DNA from: a virus
Direction: 5' to 3' (one strand)
UHGV virus genome: UHGV-1374897
DNA: 64,000 bases
The position numbers were made by a program, and so were the translations under genes. Under the pieces are notes generated by a model. It was given only the letters and a program-made list of their open reading frames with translations. It did no database searches and was not told the origin of the DNA. Of this stretch, positions 1-57,788 are shown piece by piece. Numbering within the stretch: position 1 is the first letter of the stretch; each line of letters opens with the position of its first letter.

Positions 1-37
1 TAATTTGATTCTTCATTGTTTTATTTTCCTTTCTTCT

Positions 38-146
38 TTTAGTTTTCGTTTTGTTGTCCGGGGGTTGTCCCCCGTTGATGATTTCAATTTATCAGATTTT
101 CTTACCTTGTCAAATGTTTTTTGTTTTTGTATGACACAATCGTAAG
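38..146. repeat. About 110-bp repeat unit, copy A: T-rich tract, GC hairpin CCGGGGGTTGTCCCCCG, then a sigma70-like promoter TTGTCA(107-112)-N17-TATGAC(130-135)
   Basis: About 85% identical to copy B at 527-650. Both copies sit immediately upstream in + coordinates of a minus-strand gene start. Confidence 0.6.
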
Positions 147-509
147 TTATTCATCCGCAATGTTGAAGGCCTTGCGGGCGGCGTATCCCATGCGGTCTGT
201 CTCCATGATTGTCACTAGTTCCCCGGTGGGATAGATAACGGTGTTATGTGCAACCGGACGGCCCGCCTCGTGCCTCAAAAAGCGGTGGATATCCGCAATG
301 TCATAGTTAACCCCGTCCCACATGTGCACCATGTCCAAATCCTCAAGGGCGGGGGCAACGTCCCAGGGGAAAATGTCAAACACGGCCGCAACAGGGCGGG
401 CATGTGCGATTGTTTCTGCGTACAGGACGAGGGACAAAATGCCCGCGCCGTTTTCGTGCACCGCCCATGTGAGAGTTTCACCGTCTTGTAATTTGATTTG
501 AGTGTTCAT
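147..509 (-). CDS. Hypothetical protein, 120 aa
   Basis: Clean ORF with balanced composition. An AAGGAAA Shine-Dalgarno-like sequence lies upstream of the ATG on the minus strand. Confidence 0.55.
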   Translation of the reverse strand: MNTQIKLQDGETLTWAVHENGAGILSLVLYAETIAHARPVAAVFDIFPWDVAPALEDLDMVHMWDGVNYDIADIHRFLRHEAGRPVAHNTVIYPTGELVTIMETDRMGYAARKAFNIADE

Positions 510-526
510 GATTTAGTTTCCTTTCT

Positions 527-650
527 TGTTAGTGTTTCTATTGTTTCCGGGGTTGCCCCCGTTGATGATTTAACTTTAACCTATTTTATCTTGTTGTCAA
601 ATGTTTTTTGTTTTTGTATGACACAATTATAACACGCAGATAATGAGCGA
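527..650. repeat. About 110-bp repeat unit, copy B: GC hairpin CCGGGGTTGCCCCCG plus promoter TTGTCA(595-600)-N16-TATGAC(617-622) facing gene 772
   Basis: Direct repeat of 38-146. Confidence 0.6.
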
Positions 651-771
651 GTTACAACGCGCCGGAAAGAAAACCACTTGACGCCCCCCGCCAGTATGTT
701 AAATTGCAATCATCCACCGGGGAACAACCCGGAAATGAGAACACTAATTAAATAGATAGGAGATTAAAATC

Positions 772-1155
772 ATGAACAATCAAACTATAAGCAATGACGC
801 CCCCGCACCAAGAGACCGGGAAAATAAGATGAAGCTCGTGAGAGCCGCCGCCGCTAATTTAAGAGACACAATCACCTACGCCCGCCTCGCTATTGTGCCG
901 GATAAGCGGCTCGGAGACGTAGACTATCTTGAGGCGGTGGAAGCTCTCTATTGCGGCCCCCTTGGCACGGATGACGCAGACCCTACAGAGATTTTGCTCT
1001 CTGTCACTTACGGTGCCGGATTGCCCGCCGATAAAGCGGATGATGTTGAGTACGAGCTACGCTTCATTGTTGATTCTCTACCATTCACCCCGGATGACTT
1101 TTTCCGGGGAACAGGAGACGGCACAAAGGAATACGGTGCGGTCTTTACTCTCTAA
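772..1155 (+). CDS. Hypothetical protein, 127 aa
   Basis: ORF preceded by a TAGGAGA ribosome-binding site. It lies downstream of the promoter in repeat copy B. Confidence 0.55.
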   Translation: MNNQTISNDAPAPRDRENKMKLVRAAAANLRDTITYARLAIVPDKRLGDVDYLEAVEALYCGPLGTDDADPTEILLSVTYGAGLPADKADDVEYELRFIVDSLPFTPDDFFRGTGDGTKEYGAVFTL

Positions 1156-2877
1156 AAACCAACGGGTTACGATTGTGTCATACAACTTCCCCGGTATCCA
1201 TTGCACCCCCGGATTCCCCGGCACACTATATATAGAGAGAGAGAGAGACGGCACCCCCGGTTCCTTTGGATTCTTTTGGATTTAAATTGTAAATGTAAAT
1301 GTAAATGTTCCATGTGGAACAATCCGGCAATCGGGCAATCGGGCAATCCGGCAATCGGGATTCCGGATTCCGGGGTTGTGGTGGGATAGCGGGTTCAACG
1401 GGTTCCGTTGTTGCTATCGGGTTCCGGGGGTGCAACAATATGACGTACAAGATATAGGGGTTTTACATTTTTGTAAAACTATTAGTCCAATACTTGACTA
1501 TTAATGAGGGAAGGATACCTATACCCCTATGGGTATGGCTTGTATGTTGTTGATACTTAACCAGTACCAGACCGGACAATTTAAGGGCAAGACCGTGCCC
1601 CTTTTCTGCCTTCTCCAGCGCCTTCAATTTCAATCCCTATCGGAATAGTAGGAAAACCAAAACCCCGATTTTGCATTATATGTATTATGCGAAGTATGGA
1701 AGCGGATTCCTTTGAGCATCAATGAGTTACGCATATCAGGGTGCCAGTGGGAAACAGACTTTGCATCCCCGGATTCCATGGAGACCTACAGACCACTTCA
1801 TACCATAAGTTTCTTATCATCAGACGGTTGCAACAGATTCCGGGGATTCAATGGGTTGCATGCCGTACCGTTCCCGTGACGAGGGCGGGAGCAGTCCATG
1901 GCAGGCGGCATACCGTTTCCGTTGCAATACGGGGACCTATCATACCGATTCCGCTACAGGTGGGGGGATAGGCAGGCCGCTGAAACATACTGATTCCGGT
2001 GCAATCAGGGCAAAAAGGTTCCGTGATGCACCGATTCCGTGGGTATAGGGGGAAACTGGATGCCAAGGAAATCCAAACACCACCACGGTTTCCCAGGCTC
2101 CGGGGTTGCACGCGGCCCATAGTAAATAGTTGGGTCAAATTTTTTCCGTGGGGTACGGGGGAGGGGGTACCCTTCTGGGCATGTCAAGCAAAATCGACAC
2201 GCGGCCGTTCCACGGGCGGGATATACTTCTGGTCTGTTTCAGCCTCATCTGGTCTGCACCTTATCTCCGACTTGTCAAGCAAAATCGACACGCGGCCGTT
2301 CCACGGGGGGACGTATCGACCTAGAAGGCGGGCATACTCTTCGGGCAAATTTACTAGAGTGTGGCGGGGTATAGGTAGCGAGATGGTACATTAGTCATGA
2401 AACAGGAGATAGGGCACTACCATCGACCAAATTTGCGCACGGCGGGCATAATGCGAGGGAGCGGCTCTCACGGATTTGGCGGTAAAGAAAAAGCCCGCAG
2501 GTAGCTTGACGAGACTACCCACGGGCGTAACTATGGAAAATGCCTGTAGAAAGGAGAGTGTTTGGTCCGCTCCTGTGGCGAGCAAGTTCCTTGCTTGGGA
2601 TAGCCAGAAGCATTGAGCTTAGCTGGTTCGGTTGCCGTTCGGAGCGAACAGGTGCAACATATCACATCAGGGGAGAAAGTCAAGAGGAAATCAGCGTGAT
2701 GGACGCGTTTACGAATTTAATCCAGTGTGGCGAGGTAGAAGGAGGGGATGGGGTCCGGGTGGATAGTTGTAGCGGAGGGATGGTTGCGGCGCGTTCTAGG
2801 GTAGGACCCTCGATTAAATTCAGGGGATTTGGGGATTGTCTGTCATGTGCAACCCGTTTGGCCAATATACAAAGTTC

Positions 2878-2905
2878 TTGACATTTGTTTAGGGTGTGCT
2901 ATCCT
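2878..2905 (+). promoter_or_regulatory. Sigma70-like promoter TTGACA-N16-TATCCT inside the non-coding region
   Basis: TTGACA at 2878-2883 and TATCCT at 2900-2905. No protein gene follows before a terminator. Confidence 0.35.
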
Positions 2906-2911
2906 ACGCCA

Positions 2912-3065
2912 GTTCGTAAGCATTGCAGAACGGCAAGAACCACGGCGTTTAATAGGTTCTGCCACCAAGACAATGCACCAATCCCAAGGCGACGGACTAC
3001 ATTTGTTTGTAGGTGTTGATGGAACCCCGGAGGCAGGTTTATCCTGTTTCCGGGGTTTTCTTTTA
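2912..3065 (+). ncRNA. Candidate small non-coding RNA of about 150 nt, bounded by a promoter and a terminator
   Basis: Promoter at 2878-2905. Rho-independent terminator hairpin CCCCGGAGGCAGG...CCTGTTTCCGGGG followed by TTTTCTTTT at 3023-3065. No plausible ORF with a start site lies inside. Confidence 0.3.
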
Positions 3066-3722
3066 CCCAATAGCCTCAAAATCAAGGTAAGCGATTGAGA
3101 ATTAAAATCATAGTAGGAAGACATTAAGGTTAAGGAGCTTGCTCTCCTATAACTGACCTTGAAGGCATTACCAATGTTTAACACAGGTTCGGCTCTTCAT
3201 AAGTCGTTGAGAATCAGTAAAACCCCCTTCGGCTAACAGAGTTTAACAGAGGCCTAACATTGGCTCTGTGATAGTTAAGTGCTTTAGATTGAACCGCTTC
3301 TGAAATCCTAACACTTAACATTGATACCATTGAATATTATATACGTATATAGGGAACCCTATACCCCTTTTCTTATAAAAAAATATTAAAAATAAATATG
3401 TATTATGTTATGTTATTTTAGAAAAAAGGACGCTACTACCGTTTCACTATCAATCACTTATGACCTAACAATAACTAATTGACACCTCTGTTAGCCCCGG
3501 AACCCACGGAACCCAGAATCCACGGAATAACAGAAGCAAGTTCCTCATAATCAATGGACTTCTCAAATCCTAACAGAGGTGTCAAAAACTTATCAATCAG
3601 CCGAAAACTCTGTTAGGGTCTGTGTTAAAACGAGCAACCTCAATAGGTTACAACTACCAAAGAATTGGAACAGAGGGCACCTTTGTCCCAATCCTAACAC
3701 AATAACACAATAACAGACCATC

Positions 3723-4598
3723 ATGACACAGTTTTTGAATTTTCACTTGACAGCCCGCGTCCTGTCTGCTACCGTGCCGTCGATGAATACATCAACACCA
3801 CAAAACACTAGTCGGACCGTCGAGGACCATGTGAACCAGTTTGTGCTGGAGTACATGCTCTATCTGCGGAGTTTCATGGATGAATATCCCATCGCAGGGG
3901 TATCTCCCCGCAACAGTTCATGTTGCGACGCCATCTACCTCGAAAATGATTCCCTCCCAATATATATACAGGGACCGGACAGTCGCCCGCTATCGTCTAC
4001 GCCATTGGTGGCTTTGCTTCAATATTTGGCAGAGCGGCCCTTCGTCCGGTTTACGCTTCCGACATTCTACCAGCTCCTGACCACAATATATGGTTCCCCG
4101 GTAACCGAGACCCCATTCAACCGATTGCTCTGCGCATCCACGGTAGCCCTCGATATCGCGGATTCCGTGGGTTCCGAGGGTGCCATGTTCACGCTCGCGC
4201 CACGGGCTATGGACTTTGTACGGAACCTTCCCAAGAGCAAAGATACGGAGACCATCAAACTGATAGAAGAGAACTTCCATATCCCATGCCCCGTAGCCCA
4301 AGGTCCTGCGTCCAATTCCCACTTCATCTATTGGGAGGTGATGCCACAACTGACCACCGACACCGCGAGGCGATACCTGAAAGTGCTTCACTTCGCACAA
4401 GAAGGGAGACGTAGTCCCGTAGGTATTTTCGCCCTCCATCGTAATGAGGTCTATTCCCTTTCCAGCCTCATGTCCACCTTGCGCGAGATGAACGAGAGGC
4501 AACTTATTCAGTGGCCCAAAGAAGGCGAGAAGGAAAGCGCGGAGGCCCGTATAGAAGAATTTGAACCCGTCTTCGCAACTATTGAACCCAAGAAGTAA
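3723..4598 (+). CDS. Hypothetical protein, 291 aa; first gene of the replication operon
   Basis: Long ORF directly downstream of the ori-like region. Confidence 0.55.
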   Translation: MTQFLNFHLTARVLSATVPSMNTSTPQNTSRTVEDHVNQFVLEYMLYLRSFMDEYPIAGVSPRNSSCCDAIYLENDSLPIYIQGPDSRPLSSTPLVALLQYLAERPFVRFTLPTFYQLLTTIYGSPVTETPFNRLLCASTVALDIADSVGSEGAMFTLAPRAMDFVRNLPKSKDTETIKLIEENFHIPCPVAQGPASNSHFIYWEVMPQLTTDTARRYLKVLHFAQEGRRSPVGIFALHRNEVYSLSSLMSTLREMNERQLIQWPKEGEKESAEARIEEFEPVFATIEPKK

Positions 4599-4603
4599 AC
4601 GCC

Positions 4604-7474
4604 GTGTCTATACCGGAAACAAAACTGACCGCCGTAGGCCTAACCAACGGACAACTCACCTATGATAAGGATAAATTCCCCAATGCCGGGGGATGCAACC
4701 ATCCGAATCAAGTGAACCTTGCGGACGTGGAGAGCTTTTTCTCCGCGCCCGCCGGGGCTAAAATTCAGCCCCAGCTACTGCGTTGGAGGTTCTTCTCAAC
4801 CATGTACGACATGAAGGAAGGGAGGGAGCCGCGAGTTTCTCTCCCCTCCCTCTTCACCCGTACCTATAAGAAGTGGGAAGACCAGGGGTGGCTACCTCTG
4901 GTGAAGCGGGCACTCCCTGCCTTCGTCCCCTCCGTCAAGTTCCTCGGTGCGCCCAAAGAGTTGGACGGCATGTACTTCTCCAATAAGAAGCAAGTCATGA
5001 CCGATTTCTATTCTTGGGAACATACCGGAATATTTGGGATAGATATTGACCGTGGCCATGATGGGAATACGGATGATGCGGATGCTCTCTTCTCCACTGC
5101 CCAATCCATTCTTCCCACTATTCCCGGATTCCTCTTCGCATATACCAGCCCCAGCGGCGGGATTAAGGCGTTGTTCCGTATCTCCGCATCCTATACTCAA
5201 AAGCTCAACAACCCCGGAGCATCCACGGATTCCACGGATAAAACGGCTACCGAGGTTGCGGAGGAACTGCTGGACAAGCGTCTCCTTCTCCATAGTGCCA
5301 TCTACCACTATATCGCGGAGACCGTGGAATCCCGGACGGGACTATTCACGGACCCGCGATGCGATGACCCTGCACGTCTCCAATACATCTATTGGGGCCA
5401 GTACATCGCGCCGTTAGGGGATGAGGCTCCCTACTTTACCTTACCCTCTGACACCGAGGAACTGATTGCCAAGTATGGTAAGAAGAAAGCACCGAGGACC
5501 CGCTCCTGCAACCGTGAACTGCGCGAAGGCGAAGTGTTGCCGCAGGTGTTCCGCGACTTCGCTAACTGGTTGGAAAATAGAGGACACGAGCCGGAGGCGA
5601 CCGCGGTACGTGAGATGCTTAGGACCAGACCGGATGGTAATAACCGTCTCTACAACTACTGCCCCTGTTGTAAGGAAGCATGTACCAATGCTCGCCAGAA
5701 TACGGACCTCATGCTGGAAATCAACTTGGACTTCCCTCTTCAATCGTTCTTCTTCTGTCTTCACGGCTCCTGTCAGGACCGGAAGAAGGTGAAGCTCCCG
5801 ATGCAGAAGTTGTGGAAGATATATACCACGGACCTCGAAGCCAGAGAGAACTACGAAAGCGAATGCGATGACAAGAACCAGTTGGAAGTCTATCCGTGGG
5901 CCAGTTCCCTTCCTCTGATGGAATGCGCACAACGTGGTCTTGACGTTAATAACCGAGGGACTAAAGGACTGCCTGAACGTAGTGAAATTGACTACAACGG
6001 ATTGGCATACCTCCATGTGAAGAAGGATGGAACTCCGCGGATTACGATTGACAACCTCCGCATCATGTTGCAAGGCCTTGGCTACCTTCCCGTGCGCAAC
6101 TTGTTGCGTGATTCCAATGAGTTGCTCGACCTCAATACAGGTAAGTTCTATAACACGGACAAGGACACGCTAGCCACACTCACCGCATGGTGGGAGAGGC
6201 TTACGGATGGAGCACACACTCCGCTCAAGTATTTCTCCGACGCGTTCTATGCGCTCTGCCCTCGTGCCTCCTATCACCCGCTTGCCACTCTCGTTTGTTG
6301 TAACGAATGGGACGGGCAGGACAGGTTGTCCGAGTACTTGAGCCTTCTTCCCATGAATCAGGAGCACCCGGTTCCCCAAGCCCCCGAAGGCATGGAGCCA
6401 TTTACTCCCGACACATGGAGAGATGCAGTTCTCACTACGTGGCTCGTCACCGTATGGCGACGGCTCATCCTCCATATCACCGGACGAGATTCCGAGATTC
6501 CGCAGAACTACATGCCCATCTTTGTCGGACCTCCCGCTACGGGTAAGGACAAGTGGGCAGACAACCTCTTCGGAAATATTAAGGGCTTAATGACAGACGT
6601 GCAGGACATGTCCTCCCAAGGTGTTGACCTCTCCATGCTTCTCTCCCAGTTGGTGGTGCTCAAGTGGTCCGAAGTGGATGACATCCTACAGAACCGCAAA
6701 ATGAGTTCCCGCATTAAGAAGCTTATCACTTCCAACGCTTCTACGGACCGAAGGAAGTATGCGGAGAACCTGTCAGACTTCCAGCACATCGCCAGCTTCA
6801 TTGGCTCTACCAACGATGACCAGCCGCTCATTGACCCCACAGGGAACCGTCGATTCATCCTCCTATATACGGGCTACCCGGAGACGCAGGAACGAGCCTT
6901 CGATGCTACGTGGGAACGAGTGGACCGTATGATGGCTATTGACAAGGTACAGCTTTGGGCGCAGATTAAATACATCTCGGACCATGCGGGTCCCGGTGAA
7001 TTTACATGGAGAAAGCTTACCGACGTGTCGGAAGACTTCAACAAGGAATACGGTGTTGACCTTGGAAGTGAAGAATACCTCGCCAATATGGTTCGTCCGG
7101 TCGATTACAAGTGTGACAAGACGAAGGATGGTTCTGACATTGCTAGGGCCTTCTATGAGCAAGTATCTACACCCAAGGCTCTTCTCCGGTACATTAAGGC
7201 GCAACAACAGGATAGGGCCTTCCTCGACATCAAGGAACCCACGGCATCCGAGACTAAATCGTTTACGAACGCCCTCGGAAGCGTTTACGCTAACTGCAAC
7301 GTGAATGTCAAGTTCACGGATTCAACGCAGATTGTGCGTAAGAACACCTCCTTCCGTCGCATGACCTACTTAATGGTTGAGGACTGGTTGAGGGTTTTGG
7401 ATGCGGAATCTAAGGAACGATGGTACGCAAGATTCCCTGAATGGAAGGAAAGAGACTTACATGTAGAACTGTAA
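4604..7474 (+). CDS. DNA primase/helicase: AEP-type primase-polymerase N-terminal part plus D5/SF3-like helicase C-terminal part
   Basis: GTG start. DxD primase motif FGIDIDRGHDG. Walker A FVGPPATGKDK and Walker B VVLKWSEVDD in the C-terminal half. Size 956 aa. Confidence 0.65.
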   Translation: MSIPETKLTAVGLTNGQLTYDKDKFPNAGGCNHPNQVNLADVESFFSAPAGAKIQPQLLRWRFFSTMYDMKEGREPRVSLPSLFTRTYKKWEDQGWLPLVKRALPAFVPSVKFLGAPKELDGMYFSNKKQVMTDFYSWEHTGIFGIDIDRGHDGNTDDADALFSTAQSILPTIPGFLFAYTSPSGGIKALFRISASYTQKLNNPGASTDSTDKTATEVAEELLDKRLLLHSAIYHYIAETVESRTGLFTDPRCDDPARLQYIYWGQYIAPLGDEAPYFTLPSDTEELIAKYGKKKAPRTRSCNRELREGEVLPQVFRDFANWLENRGHEPEATAVREMLRTRPDGNNRLYNYCPCCKEACTNARQNTDLMLEINLDFPLQSFFFCLHGSCQDRKKVKLPMQKLWKIYTTDLEARENYESECDDKNQLEVYPWASSLPLMECAQRGLDVNNRGTKGLPERSEIDYNGLAYLHVKKDGTPRITIDNLRIMLQGLGYLPVRNLLRDSNELLDLNTGKFYNTDKDTLATLTAWWERLTDGAHTPLKYFSDAFYALCPRASYHPLATLVCCNEWDGQDRLSEYLSLLPMNQEHPVPQAPEGMEPFTPDTWRDAVLTTWLVTVWRRLILHITGRDSEIPQNYMPIFVGPPATGKDKWADNLFGNIKGLMTDVQDMSSQGVDLSMLLSQLVVLKWSEVDDILQNRKMSSRIKKLITSNASTDRRKYAENLSDFQHIASFIGSTNDDQPLIDPTGNRRFILLYTGYPETQERAFDATWERVDRMMAIDKVQLWAQIKYISDHAGPGEFTWRKLTDVSEDFNKEYGVDLGSEEYLANMVRPVDYKCDKTKDGSDIARAFYEQVSTPKALLRYIKAQQQDRAFLDIKEPTASETKSFTNALGSVYANCNVNVKFTDSTQIVRKNTSFRRMTYLMVEDWLRVLDAESKERWYARFPEWKERDLHVEL

Positions 7475-7518
7475 GAGAAGGAGTTACAACTCCCTCAAAA
7501 ATTTCTTCCAAAAACTTC

Positions 7519-8615: not shown

Positions 8616-8999
8616 ATGTACAACGAAATTGCAATCGCCGCCCAAACAGTTGATTCCCACTTCTCCTATATGGGATTAGAGGAATCAGCCGCTGACCTCC
8701 TGCGCCATCTTCTGTGGGAGATTGAAGAATACCGGGAAGCTGACGCGGAGGACCGCGTAAAGGAGGCAACCGACATCGCCATTCTCGCATTGCGCCTCGT
8801 CGCGGCGACCGGACGGGATGAAGGTTTCACCTTTGAGGATAGCGTACACCTTACAAACGAAAAATGCCGGGAAGTCGTGAACCGCATGAACCGTGCCGTG
8901 AAACTGTACAAGAAGGACAGAACCGCCGGAATTCCTATGAGCACACCTCAAGAATACTACGCGCAAGCGAAGGAACAACTAAATACACCCAAACACTGA
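8616..8999 (+). CDS. MazG-like nucleotide pyrophosphohydrolase (tentative)
   Basis: All-alpha protein with an acidic EIEEYRE...EDRVKEATDIAILALRL pattern resembling MazG EExxE/D motifs. Confidence 0.35.
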   Translation: MYNEIAIAAQTVDSHFSYMGLEESAADLLRHLLWEIEEYREADAEDRVKEATDIAILALRLVAATGRDEGFTFEDSVHLTNEKCREVVNRMNRAVKLYKKDRTAGIPMSTPQEYYAQAKEQLNTPKH

Positions 9000-10918
9000 T
9001 GCACGAAGAATTAGATAAGAACCCTATATCATTTTCACTGCCTCGCATTCCGGGGTATGAAATGGAGATTACAGACGACCAGACCAAACTCACAGGCGAT
9101 ACTCTTGCCGTTGACTTTGAAACATACTACGAGGGGAAATATTCCCTTAAGTTCATGGACCCGCATTCCTACTGTCTGGACCCACGGTTCGACGCATACA
9201 TCATGTCCGTCTATGACGGGAAGTATTGCTGGGTAGGACATCCGAAGGATTTTGACTGGGAGAAAACTACGAAGGACAAAACCCTTGTCGCGTTTAACGC
9301 CAGCTTCGACTATGCCGTTTACCTCTTCGCACTTCACGCGCCGGGGTCCAAGGGCATCCCATGTACTCCCAGTTTCCGGCCGCCCTTCAAGGAGTGGCTC
9401 TGTTCCCGTGCCGCTTCCAACTATCTCGCCATCTATGGCTCTCTTGACAAGATTGTCGCAAAACTTTGGGGAGTAGAGATTAGCAAGGAGGTCCGAGCCA
9501 AGGCCGAAGGCGTTGATTTCCGCAAGATGGAAGTCATCCCAGACGACATGAAGGAATACGTGGCGGGCGATAGTTACTACTGTCTCGCCGTGTGGGACAA
9601 GATGAAGAACTTCTGGCCGGAAGATGAACGGGAATGCTGGCTCAATACCTGCATCATGGGATGGCGCGGAGTTCCTACTTCCCGCCAGTATCTTCTTGAC
9701 GGATTGGAGAAACTCCATCAGGCGCAGGAGGAATACAAGGAAGCTATCCCGCTTGAAAAGAAACTCTCCATTCCCCAACTACGTAGAGCGTGCGAGGAAC
9801 TGAACATCCCGCCGCCGGAGACGACGAGTAAGGCCAGCGAACTATTTACGGACTGGCTGGAAGAGTATGGCCACCTCGTTCCGTGGGTAACTCTTATCGG
9901 GAAGTACAGGAGCGTGAACCGCATGATTAGCATTACCGAGCGTATGCTTTCCCGCGTCTATACTGACCATGAAGGGATAGAACGTCTCCCCTATACGCTG
10001 ACCTACTGTGGCGCAAGTACGGGTCGCTGGACTGCCGGGGGCGACAAGCTCAACCTGCAACAGCTTAACCGTGAAGACGTTCTGGGCTTTAACCAGCGCA
10101 ACGCCATTCAAGCACCCGAAGGGTATAAGCTCGTGGTATGTGACTGGGCCGGGATTGAAGCACGTCTGACCGCTTGGCTCTGCGGGCAGGAGAAAATTCT
10201 TGATACCCTCCGTGCTGGTGAGAAGGACATCTATGCCGCTAACGCGAAAGGTTGGGGCCTCATCCCCGCGGATGTCAAGGACTTCAAACAGTACTGCAAG
10301 GAAACTCCGGGGCAAGCGGACCTTCGTCAGCATGTGAAGGCGGGGGTACTTGCTTGCGGCTTTAGTGCTGGATGGGGGGCTATTCAACGCTCGAACCCCG
10401 GAATGGACAGGGACCAGTGCCAAGCGATTGTGGACATGTACCGCAGTCGTAGCCCAGAAGTGGTAGCATGGTGGAGAGAGTTGGACGCGCTGGCCGCTCG
10501 TGGCTATCGTACCCCCTCTCATAGTTTTGCGCTCTCCCTTCCCTCTGGCCGGAAGCTCTATTATCGTAACTGTTACAAGAAACTCATTCAACCCAAGGAC
10601 GGTCGTCGTCCCTATTTCGTAACCTGCGTCGATTTCGGATACAAGTCCTCCATTGTCAATACTAACCTCCTTAGCAACAATAACATCCAGTCAATCGCAC
10701 GTGACCTCATGGTCCGCACGTTCAATCGCTTGTGCAAGGAATTAGAGGGTGCGCAACCTATCCTTCTCGTGCATGACGAAGCCGTAGTGATGGTTCCGGC
10801 TGACCATGCCGAGGAATACGCCCAGCGCATCGAACAGATAATGGAAGATACTCCCCAGTGGGCTTCTTCCCTTCCGCTCCTTGCCGAACCTGAAATCATG
10901 GACAAGTATCGCAAATGA
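8999..10918 (+). CDS. DNA polymerase, family A, with 3-5 exonuclease domain
   Basis: Exo motifs DFETYY, NASFDYAVY and YVAGDSYY. Pol motif A CDWAGIEARL, motif B KAGVLACGFSAGWG and motif C LVHDEAVV. The start is TGATG-overlapped with the upstream ORF (longer ORF call 8864..10918). Confidence 0.8.
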   Translation: MHEELDKNPISFSLPRIPGYEMEITDDQTKLTGDTLAVDFETYYEGKYSLKFMDPHSYCLDPRFDAYIMSVYDGKYCWVGHPKDFDWEKTTKDKTLVAFNASFDYAVYLFALHAPGSKGIPCTPSFRPPFKEWLCSRAASNYLAIYGSLDKIVAKLWGVEISKEVRAKAEGVDFRKMEVIPDDMKEYVAGDSYYCLAVWDKMKNFWPEDERECWLNTCIMGWRGVPTSRQYLLDGLEKLHQAQEEYKEAIPLEKKLSIPQLRRACEELNIPPPETTSKASELFTDWLEEYGHLVPWVTLIGKYRSVNRMISITERMLSRVYTDHEGIERLPYTLTYCGASTGRWTAGGDKLNLQQLNREDVLGFNQRNAIQAPEGYKLVVCDWAGIEARLTAWLCGQEKILDTLRAGEKDIYAANAKGWGLIPADVKDFKQYCKETPGQADLRQHVKAGVLACGFSAGWGAIQRSNPGMDRDQCQAIVDMYRSRSPEVVAWWRELDALAARGYRTPSHSFALSLPSGRKLYYRNCYKKLIQPKDGRRPYFVTCVDFGYKSSIVNTNLLSNNNIQSIARDLMVRTFNRLCKELEGAQPILLVHDEAVVMVPADHAEEYAQRIEQIMEDTPQWASSLPLLAEPEIMDKYRK

Positions 10919-16973: not shown

Positions 16974-17623
16974 GAGCCGCTGCAAAGATTTCTACACCCA
17001 AACCGATTTCCAACGAGAACACCGTTATAAGGAAGGCCATTGAGATGTACAAGGCCGGAACTCCCGTGCCCGTCATCTCGGAAGTTACTGGCCTTCCCCG
17101 TGAACGTGTTGATAAGATTGTTGATAGCGTCCAACTCTCGAAGGAGGAACTGGCTATCCGCAATGAACTTCTCAATACGTACACGCAGAACACACAGGCA
17201 CGCATCCTCCAACGCCAAGAGGCGAGGACGAAGATAGAGCTTGACATCGTTGAATCCATGAGTAGTCAGTACAAAGAACTGATGAACAGTGGATTCTCCC
17301 GTGTCGCTTCCTTCATGGCCGACGCAGAGATACAATCAATTAAGGATGTACCTCTCTTCCTCTCTATCATGGAGCGAAGCCACGGCCTGTGGGAGAAGTT
17401 TAACGAAGCGATTGCGAAGCGCGACATGGACCTACTGTCACAGGTTATCCAGCAGTTCGAACTGGAACAGACCGAGATAGTGACGCAGATGGGATTGCAG
17501 GGAGGACCAGTAACTCTGAACAAGGATGGCACTCGCCCTGAACTGGAAGAAGGAAGCGCGGCCCGTACCATCACCTTGAAGCTCAAGAAGAAGGGCGAAA
17601 AGCCCGAAGAAGACACTAAATAA
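16964..17623 (+). CDS. Hypothetical protein, 219 aa, with an N-terminal HTH-like segment (possible small terminase)
   Basis: ORF overlapping the TerL end. Segment VISEVTGLPRERVDKIV looks like a helix-turn-helix. Confidence 0.4.
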   Translation: MDLRAAAKISTPKPISNENTVIRKAIEMYKAGTPVPVISEVTGLPRERVDKIVDSVQLSKEELAIRNELLNTYTQNTQARILQRQEARTKIELDIVESMSSQYKELMNSGFSRVASFMADAEIQSIKDVPLFLSIMERSHGLWEKFNEAIAKRDMDLLSQVIQQFELEQTEIVTQMGLQGGPVTLNKDGTRPELEEGSAARTITLKLKKKGEKPEEDTK

Positions 17624-53000: not shown

Positions 53001-56000
53001 CCCTATGATTCAGGACATCGCTAAGACACGGGCCGAAGCTAAACAAATCATCCGGGAAGCCAAGGATGATTTCTACGCCGCAACAAAGCGAGCGGGCGTA
53101 ACTCGCGCTGGCGTAGCTACCCCTGCTGGTTCCGTGTGGCTGAAACGGGACAACGCTATCCTCAATGCACGCCGTCAAAAACAAGCGGAGTATATGGCTA
53201 AGCGGGATGCCGCTGAACAGTGGCTTCTGTCACAGGGGGTTGTAGGTCAACTGGTCCACAATGTCATCGCCAATTCCCGTAAAGAAATTGCCGCAACGCA
53301 AATCTCTATTGCCAAGCTCATTGGAGATAGCCGCATGGCTGACAACGCCGCGGAGATGAATTATCTTCATCGCACCTACATGGCCGTAGGACGCCATGCC
53401 GGAGACTTCACCCGGACGATGAAGGACATCATCGCAAACCCCAACGGAGAACTGGCGCAGAAATACGACGGTCTGACGAAACTGTTGCAGGAAGCCGCAA
53501 TCTCTCATGCCGAAGCGCACCAGAGAGAACTGTCCGAAAACGTAAGCCAAGTGCTGGACAACATGCAGGCATTGGCCGCGCTCCACGACGAGTTGAAACT
53601 TCCGCTGGTGTCAGCTCCCACGGGAGCCTCCGCGAATTATAAACTCCTGTTCGAGGGTGTAGCCAAGAACTACAGGAACAGGGAAATTCTGGACTTCATT
53701 CAGAACAACTTCGGCCAGGTTCAAATGCTTGCAGATTTGAGGGACGGCCACAACATCAGTGCCATATATAATAAGGCCATGAGCATGATAGCACAGGCAG
53801 ACTATCGCACGAAGTCAAAGATGACAGAGGCGAAGGAAACTCTGGACATGAATGCCAGAGATAGTTTCCTCGCTGATGTCTTCTCCAGCCTTCCGGGAAA
53901 AACGATTGCGGACAAAATTGGCAGTCTTCAATCCCCGGCATCCGTGGCTTCCGAAGTGAACAAGGCCATCCCCACTATCCCGACTTCGGCCATTGACCAG
54001 ATATGGAACACGCCCGATATGAATGCCGCAGAACGACTGGACAAGACGCTCAATCTTCTTCGCGGTCAGGCTGGCGTTCTCATGAGGATGAACGGCATGG
54101 GCAACGTCATCTCCGCTACCGACTTGAAAGCGTTGCAATATCCGGAACTCTCCCGCCTCGCAGTGAACGATGCCATGAAGGCCATTGACGAAGTTCTGTC
54201 CAAGAAGAGGACGAATGAAGATGCGCTGGCCCAGCGGAAACGCTTGCCCGAATGGCAGAGGAAAGCTATGTATGAACTTAGCGACCTCACCATTGGGGAT
54301 GCCATTGGGACGTTACAGAATACCCTATCCATGCAGTCGAAGATTGCCGTGAACCAGTTGCTTGCTGACGAGTATGCCTCCGTACTGAAAGCGCAGGGTG
54401 TGGTCGTACCCCCGAATTCCACAAACCGTACCTCGGACATGGTGGAAATCTCCTTGAAGAATACGAAGAATGCGTTGAACGGAATGTACGCCGACAAGGA
54501 TGTAGCCGATGCCATCTACCGCATCTACAGACCGAGCGACGACATCCTGAATAACAGGACGGACGACTATAAGGAGGTGCGCAAGTACTGGCAGAAGTCC
54601 GGCAAGGGGCAAGGATGGTGGAATAAGGCGGGTGGCTTGGCTAACCTTTCTGTCTTAATAGCGAGTCCTAATTCCACGTTACGTAACTTATATGGTACAG
54701 TAGCTCAAATGACCCATGCGGGTGCACTCCCATTCACGGGGAGTAAAGACATCGCAAACCTTGTCGGGGACTGGGTCCAGTTGCGTAAGCTATGGTGGCT
54801 ATCACAGGGCAAGGACCTTGCTTCACAGGCTTCCGCGGATAGACTGCTGGCCGCGGAAGACAGGTACAACGAGAAGATTCGCTACTGGCAAGAGCTTGGT
54901 CTGCTGGACGCAGGTCAAGGGGAGTTCCTGCGCAACGTCTGGAAGTCTGACGAGTTCAGTAAGATGGCAGGAGAATTTGAAGAAGTGAATGAGGATTCCT
55001 TCTTCAAACTGGCCGAAGCTCTGAACGAGAAACAGGAACGGACGAAGGGCGAGGTGGCTAAGGATGCCGCCAAGATGGCGGGCAAAGTCGTAGCATGGCC
55101 CATCAAAACGATGTCCTTCGCCTATGGCTTGCCGGACGCGGCGGCCAAGATTGTTCTCTTCACTAACCAGAGAGCGATTGCCGATACCCAATTAAAGGTA
55201 CAACTGGCGCGGGCGAAGGGCAAGGCCAACCCCAATGCGCGGGACCAGATACTCATTGACGCGAGCCAGACTACCCAGAGTTGGGATGCTTATGTGGACA
55301 GGTATACTGCCCACATGGTGAAGAGCTTGCTCCCCACGGGTTCGCGTACTCCTTCGTGGGTGAAAACCCTGAATATAGTTGCGGCTCCGTTCTTCATGTT
55401 CCAGTACCATACCTTCCAGTCTGTAGCCTACAACCTTGGCCACGCCATAGGTGAAGGGGTAGACGGTGTGTGGGCTATCAATAACGGCATGAAGAAGGAG
55501 GGGGCTTACCTCTTGGGACGCGCTATCCTTCGTACCGCGGGTTCCTTAGTAACTATTTCTGCAACCTCTGCGGTCTCTTCCTGGGTTGCCCGACAGATTA
55601 TCGCCAGTGTCTTGGGAGATGACGATGACCGTAAAATCATTGACGACGCGGAAGTCATGAGGAAGCTGGCAGATAGTGGGCTAATTCCTGACTATGATAA
55701 GTTCGGGGACTTGATTGGCATCATAGATATGAAGCGACATGAGTTCGAGTATTTGAACCTTGAATACATGAACCCGTTCAAGACCATCAGGGTGTTAGCC
55801 AAAACCCTGCCCAGCCTCTTCATGGATATGGATGTGGACAAGTGGGGGATGAACAAGGTTGCCGAACTGAAAAACCTGCTGGAAAATACGGTGCTTGAAG
55901 AATCCCTCCTTCTGAATGCCGCTTCTGAATTGTTTAATGAGGAAGACTTCAATTACAAGCATAGCCTCTCCGGTGATGAAAGCGTCAACGTTCTCCCGGC

Positions 56001-57407: not shown

Positions 57408-57788
57408 TTGATACATACTTCCCTCCGTATGAACTCAATATTCACAGCAGAAGAAGCTAGCAAGCTCCCCCTGTATAAGGGATGCACGGTGTTCATTAAC
57501 GTACATTGCGGTGGCATGCCCACAGTGAGAGCCGTTGAAGTATCTGATGTCGCCTTCGAATGTTTCGTTTCTCGTGTCAGAATCGAATACATCAACCACC
57601 GATTCAGAACCATAGATAATGGCTATCTCAACCACACTGTCTTCCTCACCTATCAGGACGCGGCCAAGCATGCGTGCCACGATTACGTCGAAGAGATAGA
57701 GAGGCTCGAACAACAACTCGAAACCAAAAAGAAAAAGCTCGCCGAACTGATGGCGAGCATTGAGAAAAACGAAGTTCCTGTCAGTTAG
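57408..57788 (+). CDS. Hypothetical protein with C-terminal coiled coil
   Basis: ORF. The possible true start is MNSIF at 57429, downstream of a TTGACA(57392-57397)...TACATA element. Confidence 0.45.
   Translation: MIHTSLRMNSIFTAEEASKLPLYKGCTVFINVHCGGMPTVRAVEVSDVAFECFVSRVRIEYINHRFRTIDNGYLNHTVFLTYQDAAKHACHDYVEEIERLEQQLETKKKKLAELMASIEKNEVPVS

Follow-up and report, generated by a model that had tools for sequence, protein, structure and literature searches.

In this work, the question was what function is served by a short piece of non-coding DNA that is bounded by its own promoter and terminator and lies beside the replication genes of an uncultured phage. The window, that is, the whole stretch of 64,000 nucleotides (64 kb) analysed here, covers most of a human-gut phage genome of ~70 kb and encodes a VapE-like primase/helicase (4604-7474, + strand, GTG start at 4604-4606), a family A DNA polymerase (8864-10918), a SNF2-type helicase and a large terminase. 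Near-identical and related contigs all came from human-gut metagenomes. None of the cultured phages is close. Identity of the DNA polymerase to theirs does not exceed 26%, and a search of the non-coding region DNA against cultured phages gave no match. The conserved block adjoining the RNA gene was scanned in GTDB representative genomes for a host or prophage, also with no match. No lysogeny functions were seen among the phage proteins scanned, and the lineage is probably virulent. The unit (2878-3065) is contained in a non-coding stretch (1156-3722) upstream of the replication genes, and an earlier note on this DNA had proposed that its transcript is a regulatory or a replication-priming RNA. 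We hypothesize, with confidence slightly above even, that the predicted RNA, here called T1, is a trans-encoded antisense repressor of both replication genes downstream of the origin. The regulatory part of the earlier proposal is thus retained, as segments of T1 are complements of the 5' ends of the two replication genes, and the priming part is disfavoured.

The promoter proposed for the unit, TTGACA-N16-TATCCT at 2878-2905 (+), is present and represents the best sigma-70-like match within positions 1-5000 (10/12, with TG at 2897-2898). It comprises the -35 element TTGACA (2878-2883), a 16-nt spacer and the extended -10 element TGcTATCCT (2897-2905). Furthermore, it is of the recurrent intergenic type of this phage (TTCTTGACA, N16-17, TGnTAnnnT), which is also found at 7518, 13482, 17625, 29666, 41331, and 57391. 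The transcript would start at A2911 or G2912, 6-7 nt past the -10 element, and T1 (2911-3066, +) would be ~150 nt long with its 3' end within the U-run of an intrinsic terminator (3023-3066, +). In this terminator, a 15-bp hairpin with the arms AACCCCGGAGGCAGG and CCTGTTTCCGGGGTT (3023-3057) is followed by TTTTCTTTT at 3058-3066. The hairpin had been recognized correctly before, although the extent of 3023-3055 given for the hairpin was two bases too short. The covariation check in relatives that had been suggested revealed compensatory changes in the terminator: across the cassette types described below, 96.7% of the cells were paired and six pairs showed double changes, and the hairpin is common to every type. 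Two wobbles, a G.U and a U.G pair, were retained in 9/10 sequences, and therefore the hairpin would be functional only in the + strand RNA.

Comparison with known RNA families returned nothing equivalent to this unit. Rfam 15 gave no match at the gathering threshold across the 64 kb, and the best sub-threshold match, rdlD (25.2 bits versus a threshold of 50), aligns to the terminator hairpin only. A tRNA/tmRNA scan found nothing. On sequence grounds, the T1 unit is a candidate new RNA family. The terminator hairpin was rejected as a unique marker of this family because the unrelated phages L059-L062 and L064 use nearly the same hairpin; e.g., at 5912-5936 of L060, the near-identical GGAGGCAGG..CCTGCTTCC with a T-run terminates after the capsid gene. 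A likeness of the CUACA..UGUAG hairpin to Cas12a repeats was also discarded, since there are no repeats and no cas genes and the hairpin loop varies.

The body between promoter and terminator had been described as having no credible start codon, and the ~110 nt after the promoter indeed contain no credible ORF and no ORF with a family match. Open frames do cross the region (2829-3098 and 2885-3019 on the + strand and 2843-3184 on the - strand), and the unit could accordingly be read as a gene for a small protein of 89 or 44 aa (+) or 113 aa (-). However, the TTG/GTG starts of these frames are not accompanied by ribosome-binding sites, the ORFs traverse the terminator hairpin, and none of those crossing the region had a Pfam match even at E = 1. 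In the relative L003, a 4-nt deletion would frameshift all ORFs crossing the RNA region; the same deletion takes loop bases of predicted stem-loop 2 and leaves the stem intact. Moreover, relatives swap the entire body for unrelated sequence of other length, and a conserved small-peptide ORF, which would speak against a non-coding unit, was sought in homologous regions and none was found. A coding function is thus extremely improbable.

Relatives were recovered with two probes, a conserved DNA motif and the end of the conserved block, yielding at least 40 related contigs. To the left of ~2833, a block of 490 nt is ~95% identical in all relatives, including those with as little as 35-40% primase identity. 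To the right of ~2833, the homology breaks, and nearly all relatives have a recombination breakpoint here. Past the breakpoint, all of them carry one or two cassettes, in each of which a short variable body stands between a promoter and the common terminator; the cassettes are followed by module-specific iterons, an AT-rich stretch and the replication genes, and the iteron type switches together with the replication module. The bodies were divided into at least five types (T1 to T5), with T1 in the window, L002, and L003. In the distant relative L008 (primase 40% identical), unrelated sequence is arranged in the same layout. Judging from these comparisons, positions 2878-3066 are a real, conserved slot for a predicted small-RNA gene at the phage origin, and the earlier description of a discrete promoter-to-terminator non-coding unit adjoining an origin-like region is upheld.

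A breakpoint at ~2833 in nearly all relatives could also mean that the bodies are recombination scars, i.e., decaying inverted copies of gene 5' ends, and that the promoter and terminator serve something else, e.g., insulation of the origin. Many cassettes without a match to the present genome would agree with this, as would the first 70 nt past the conserved block in the L034 locus (also in L067 and L093), where a promoter-less T2 remnant (GGCTGATATTATATGGCCACCATCTCCTAGGTTGATGTTCCCAAAGTG) precedes two intact cassettes. The remnant demonstrates that cassettes turn over by recombination. On the other hand, every body is provided with a separate promoter and terminator, duplicated cassettes (L004, L034) included, and in L003 the promoter hexamers are kept, whereas the spacer and the flanks have diverged. 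Placement of the complementary bases in a loop is unlikely for a scar, and the compensatory changes in type T4, both described below, point to selection on pairing. We therefore consider scars an improbable origin of the bodies and continue with the antisense repressor.

The non-coding region has other features beside the T1 unit. A second small-RNA candidate is encoded on the - strand at 2484-2683, inside the conserved block (2340-2832). It has the promoter TTGACT, N16, TATGTT (2683-2656) and a body of ~165 nt, and it ends in a 13-bp terminator (2526-2493) with an adjoining T-run (fold z = -4.37). Its 5' domain (GTTCG..GAACGGCAA..GAACCA) is paralogous to stem-loop 1 of T1. Sequences like its middle part (CTGGCTATCCCAAGCAAGGAACTTGCT) occur in the sense orientation at 54786-54829, 17150-17173, and 57620-57670 (+), and one such site lies inside an ORF of 3218 aa (alignment score 37). 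A palindrome-ended motif, TGTCAAGCAAAATCGACAYGCGG, is repeated at 2182-2219 and 2273-2310, and in L008 at 8669, 8809, 8890, and 9180. This DNA, which has a TTGACA on the minus strand, is conserved even in L008 despite the 40% identity of its primase. A function as operator or promoter is possible, and the motif was effective as a probe for recovering relatives. Non-coding stretches conserved between the window (1666-1760 and 2078-2150) and L008 (8100-8200 and 8400-8465) include ATTATGCGAAGTATGGA, ATCAATGAGTTA, GGTGCCAGTGGGAAACAG, and CATAGTAAATA..GGG.CAAATTTT. A direct repeat of ~90 nt flanks the conserved block (2736-2824 versus ~2260-2347, ~80-89% identical); it is found in L004 at 906-990 and 1376-1483, and the left copy of the window is partly deleted relative to the relatives. 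Short tandem repeats are clustered at 1225-1360, namely a (GA)n run, three copies of TGTAAA and four copies of the 8-nt unit CAATCSGG (1320-1359), and this cluster is adjoined by many GGATTCC and TTCCGGGG-type repeats at 1200-2160.

Immediately downstream of the small-RNA unit lies the predicted replication origin (3060-3722), in which TAACA/CTAACAG iterons flank an AT-rich unwinding region at ~3330-3430. TAACA occurs 17 times here where 0.6 copies would be expected, and no 80-nt window of the whole 64 kb is richer in AT than 3348-3427. Together with the genes downstream, this segment is arranged like an iteron-type origin and the replication genes that belong to it. A copy of the CCACGG core had also been noted in the unit, and it is present (GAACCACGGCG at 2937-2947). 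However, the motif is over-represented across the 64 kb (101 copies versus 36 expected), and therefore the single copy here is no evidence for an origin core. It belongs to the loop that would pair with the primase start (CACGGCGTTTA versus TAAACGCCGTG). Copies of CCACGG are frequently spaced 9 or 18 nt apart, coding regions included (e.g., 5223/5232, 31403/31412, 35899/35908/35917, and 50915/50933/50951), and also occur inside the primase gene, e.g., as TCCACGGATTCCACGGAT. Binding sites, modification sites or a repeated peptide could account for the excess.

The unit is not only adjacent to the origin but also points into it. Its promoter might thus serve to transcribe towards the origin, for activation, R-loop formation or priming, the sequence of the RNA being unimportant, as in origin-activating transcription from the lambda pR/pO and T7 1.1A/B promoters. 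A highly variable body between a conserved promoter and terminator would fit this function, and so would the absence of significant structure in the body. However, the strong, covarying terminator ends at 3066 and stops transcription ~270 nt before the AT-rich region begins at ~3330, so that the transcript would not extend into the unwinding region as ColE1 RNA II and transcripts from T7 1.1A/B do. Complementarity to start codons would be needless for a primer; moreover, the orientation-specific complementarity to the replication-gene starts and the synonymous-site covariation of T4 would be left unexplained. The primer or origin-activation idea is thus disfavoured and quite unlikely, with read-through past the terminator as a possibility.

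If T1 acts instead as an antisense repressor, its unpaired segments and the start regions of the replication genes are of importance. Structure prediction, which had also been suggested, gave a divided outcome, as the whole unit is strongly folded (z = -4.85), whereas the T1 body without the terminator is not above shuffles (z = -1.05), and the strong fold score is therefore owed mainly to the terminator. Within the body, stem-loop 1 (2920-2976, +) exposes a 13-nt apical loop (2942-2954) with a loop P(unpaired) of 1.0; this stem-loop is the one with a paralogue in the conserved minus-strand RNA candidate. It is followed by stem-loop 2 and the 3' tail (2990-3021, +), with stem-loop 2 itself at 2990-3018. 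The most accessible part of T1 comprises the anti-primase bases 2942-2951 (P unpaired 1.0, opening energy 0.05 kcal/mol).

The start codons of both target genes were inferred. The promoter of the first replication gene (3748-3776, +; TTGACA, N17, TGcTACCGT) is followed by an ATG (3783) only 7 nt past its -10 element, and therefore the first-gene mRNA is probably leaderless. Leaderless-type geometry was also found in the first replication gene of L004, L037, L034, and L077. The annotated ATG 3723 lies upstream of this promoter, the hexamers of which fall within the longer ORF, and the real start is probably ATG 3783 and not 3723. From ATG 3783, the gene encodes 271 aa with no family match, a putative origin-binding protein. 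Its stop codon (4596-4598) is separated by a 5-nt spacer from the GTG start of the primase.

The complementarity of T1 to the primase start involves the stretch CACGGCGTTTA (2941-2951, +), which is a perfect complement of the junction TAAACGCCGTG (4596-4606, +) covering the first-gene stop, the spacer and the primase GTG. The alignment extends to TAAACGCCGTG..TCT..CCG, and 10 of the 11 anti-primase bases sit in the loop of stem-loop 1. The duplex with the junction of the window has an energy of -27.7 kcal/mol versus -15.9 with that of L004, and the reverse complement of T1 scored 23 against the primase start window (p = 0.0035, 2600 background windows). In L003 and L079, the closest T1 relatives, the loop is unchanged and the junction is TAAATTCCATG, in which 8/11 bases match; as 3/11 positions differ, the primase pairing is not conserved there.

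The second pairing region is the segment TTTGTAGGTGTTGATG (3006-3021, +), which, with CGACGG/ACTA further 5', is complementary to positions 3790-3830 (+), i.e., +8 to +48 of the first gene. The core of this target, CATCAACACC-ACAAA at 3790-3804, corresponds to codons 3-8. The T1 reverse complement scored 26 with the start window of the first gene, above all 2600 background windows, although the match lies in a GU-rich versus CA-rich low-complexity context and one parallel-orientation control reached 24; the sense and reversed controls scored 13-18. The site is the third-best distinct T1 site in the 64 kb on both strands, and the first-gene and primase sites rank 8th and 25th of 5090 overlapping windows (64 kb, both strands). 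The predicted T1:first-gene duplex has an energy of -34.1 kcal/mol, and the target is conserved in all T1 phages. By RNAduplex with shuffles on whole RNAs, only modest signals were obtained (window z = -2.56); since long interior loops inflate the RNAduplex energies, local-alignment and background-window tests were used instead. Thus, one RNA would address two genes with cores of 10-16 nt within imperfect duplexes of 25-30 bp.

A third segment of T1, the linker AATCCCAAGGCG (2980-2991, +), is a seed that T1 shares with cassettes of type T2; part of it is unpaired (mean P = 0.63). It has a 12-nt match to codons 9-12 of the primase of siblings of the L013/L075 type, and no target of this segment was found in the 64-kb window.

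In reverse complement, the cassette bodies are similar to 5' ends of replication genes, and sister cassettes provide further evidence of pairing. The T4 match covers the primase start codon plus ~30 nt, with a score of 38 in L077 (reached by 0/200 RNA shuffles) and 26 in L034 (4/200). Between L034 and L077, primase codons 4-9 differ by three changes, all of them synonymous and each with its counterpart in the RNA, and the cognate duplexes are more stable than the swapped ones (-38.8 versus -18.7 and -32.0 versus -27.9 kcal/mol). In type T2, most loci spanning both sites have an 11-nt perfect match to codons 9-12 of their own primase, and L057 has a T2 target with an uncompensated G-to-A change. 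The Fisher-combined p over 12 cassettes was 7e-8, the cassettes being related and the tests not fully independent. In the background-window test, T5, L008, T2d, and T3c had no significant match to their own genes, and the L008 and T5 cassettes showed no significant complementarity to their own primase starts. The proposition that all cassettes target the first-gene start was rejected as only partly true, since the primase start is the predicted target of T4, of T2, and of the T1 loop.

Other cassettes match the genes of siblings better than those of their own genome. The T3 RNAs of L004, L034, L069, and L090 matched the window-type first gene better than their own; those of L034, L069, and L090 scored 20-25 against the window-type gene, their best match, and 12-17 against their own. 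The two RNAs of L004 scored 22 against the L075-type primase and 27 against the window-type first gene, above the 12-16 obtained with the genes of L004 itself, and in the cross matrix the T2d of L004 and the middle segment of T1 matched L075-type primases only. Self-regulation therefore cannot explain every cassette, given the T3 RNAs. Instead of self-regulation, or besides it, the cassette RNAs could silence the replication-gene starts of co-infecting sibling phages that have other replication modules, and this is also suggested by the T1 linker with its match outside the window and by the T1 loop of L003, which matches the primase junction of the window and not that of L003. The cassettes would then form an exchangeable anti-replication RNA arsenal, in which bodies are swapped with the promoter and terminator as recombination handles and targets diversify to escape. 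The target sites are local hot spots of divergence: positions 3788-3812 are the most divergent stretch of the first gene between the window and L004, alignment artefacts aside, and these two genomes carry different cassettes. Such divergence between lineages fits either co-diversification or escape. Moreover, many variants co-occur in one metagenome (3300045988). However, there are strong self-matches that change in step with the cassette's own target (T4 of L034 and L077, most complete T2 loci, and T1 versus both genes of the window), and the mismatched cassettes are equally explicable as relics of recent module swapping; they may be such relics or may act against sibling phages. We regard silencing of siblings as doubtful, and the arsenal as doubtful to the same degree. 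If true, interference would be an RNA analogue of plasmid incompatibility or of P1/P7 heteroimmunity among virulent phages.

For the antisense repressor of the phage's own replication genes, the in silico evidence consists of the promoter and terminator, the cassette architecture, the complementarities with their statistics, the loop accessibility and the sister-type covariation. From these we infer that T1 is made and that it pairs in vivo with a negative sign of regulation. The exposed 13-nt loop of stem-loop 1 would pair at 4596-4606, where the first-gene stop and the primase/helicase start meet, and the 3' domain would pair with +8 to +48 of the probably leaderless first-gene mRNA. Both pairings would block the access of ribosomes or expose the mRNA to RNases, and the synthesis of the replication proteins would thereby be limited or timed. 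If confirmed, T1 would represent an undescribed RNA family, and it would mean that probably virulent, uncultured gut phages control their own replication proteins by a trans-encoded antisense RNA whose gene adjoins the origin. Among the relatives, five or more body types occur in one or two cassettes per genome, with targets that match in some cases and not in others. This natural allelic series makes RNA-target specificity, the mosaicism of replication modules and possible phage-versus-phage interference testable by reporter assays. Furthermore, a 2.5-kb non-coding region that is empty in the output of gene callers gains precise functional annotations, namely origin iterons, an unwinding region, leaderless replication-gene promoters and two predicted small RNA genes.

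Among known systems, the P4 satellite phage CI RNA, which is related to c4, controls an operon containing the alpha primase/helicase, and T1 resembles it in that the genes regulated would include a primase/helicase. T1 is also similar to c4 in being encoded upstream of its targets on the same strand and in having short loop stretches that are complementary, in silico, near translation starts. The c4 RNA of P1/P7 is a trans-acting antisense RNA whose loops pair at ribosome-binding sites in a phage-specific manner known as heteroimmunity (PMC12197685). Unlike c4, T1 has no match to the C4 family in Rfam, even at E <= 10 in 1150-3750; its targets are replication genes and not an antirepressor, and cassettes of its type are modular and exchanged among relatives. 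Moreover, c4 and CI are processed from a longer transcript (c4/CI-type processing by RNase P), whereas the T1 unit has its own promoter and intrinsic terminator, which argues against c4-type processing from an operon transcript. As no lysogeny genes were seen, the role of T1 is probably not prophage immunity.

The lambda OOP RNA is likewise a promoter-to-terminator RNA of similar size class beside a phage origin and replication genes, and it, too, was at one time taken for a possible primer (PMC12197685). However, OOP overlaps its target, the 3' end of cII, on the opposite strand, and T1 has no such overlap. Like small RNAs of the Hfq type, T1 has a promoter of its own, one or more seed regions and a U-tailed Rho-independent terminator, and it would pair imperfectly with translation start regions; it differs in that its targets are in the same phage genome and adjoin the RNA gene, and in that the terminator sequence is conserved across otherwise unrelated bodies. 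The plasmid copy-control RNAs (CopA of R1, RNA I of ColE1/pT181, and Inc RNA of ColE2) are cis-encoded on the opposite strand and fully complementary to their targets. The T1 gene (2911-3066) and its targets (3790-3830 and 4596-4606) are all on the + strand and do not overlap, so a plasmid-style antisense overlap does not apply. With targets 0.77 and 1.65 kb (0.77-1.65 kb) downstream on the same strand, T1 would therefore act in trans with partial complementarity, and one RNA would address two genes. On the other hand, T1 shares with the plasmid RNAs the arrangement of a small terminator-ended RNA beside an iteron/AT-rich origin and a recognition loop that is complementary, in silico, to the 5' region of a replication-gene mRNA, and with them it would have in common the predicted negative control of initiator synthesis and the role of a determinant of specificity or incompatibility.
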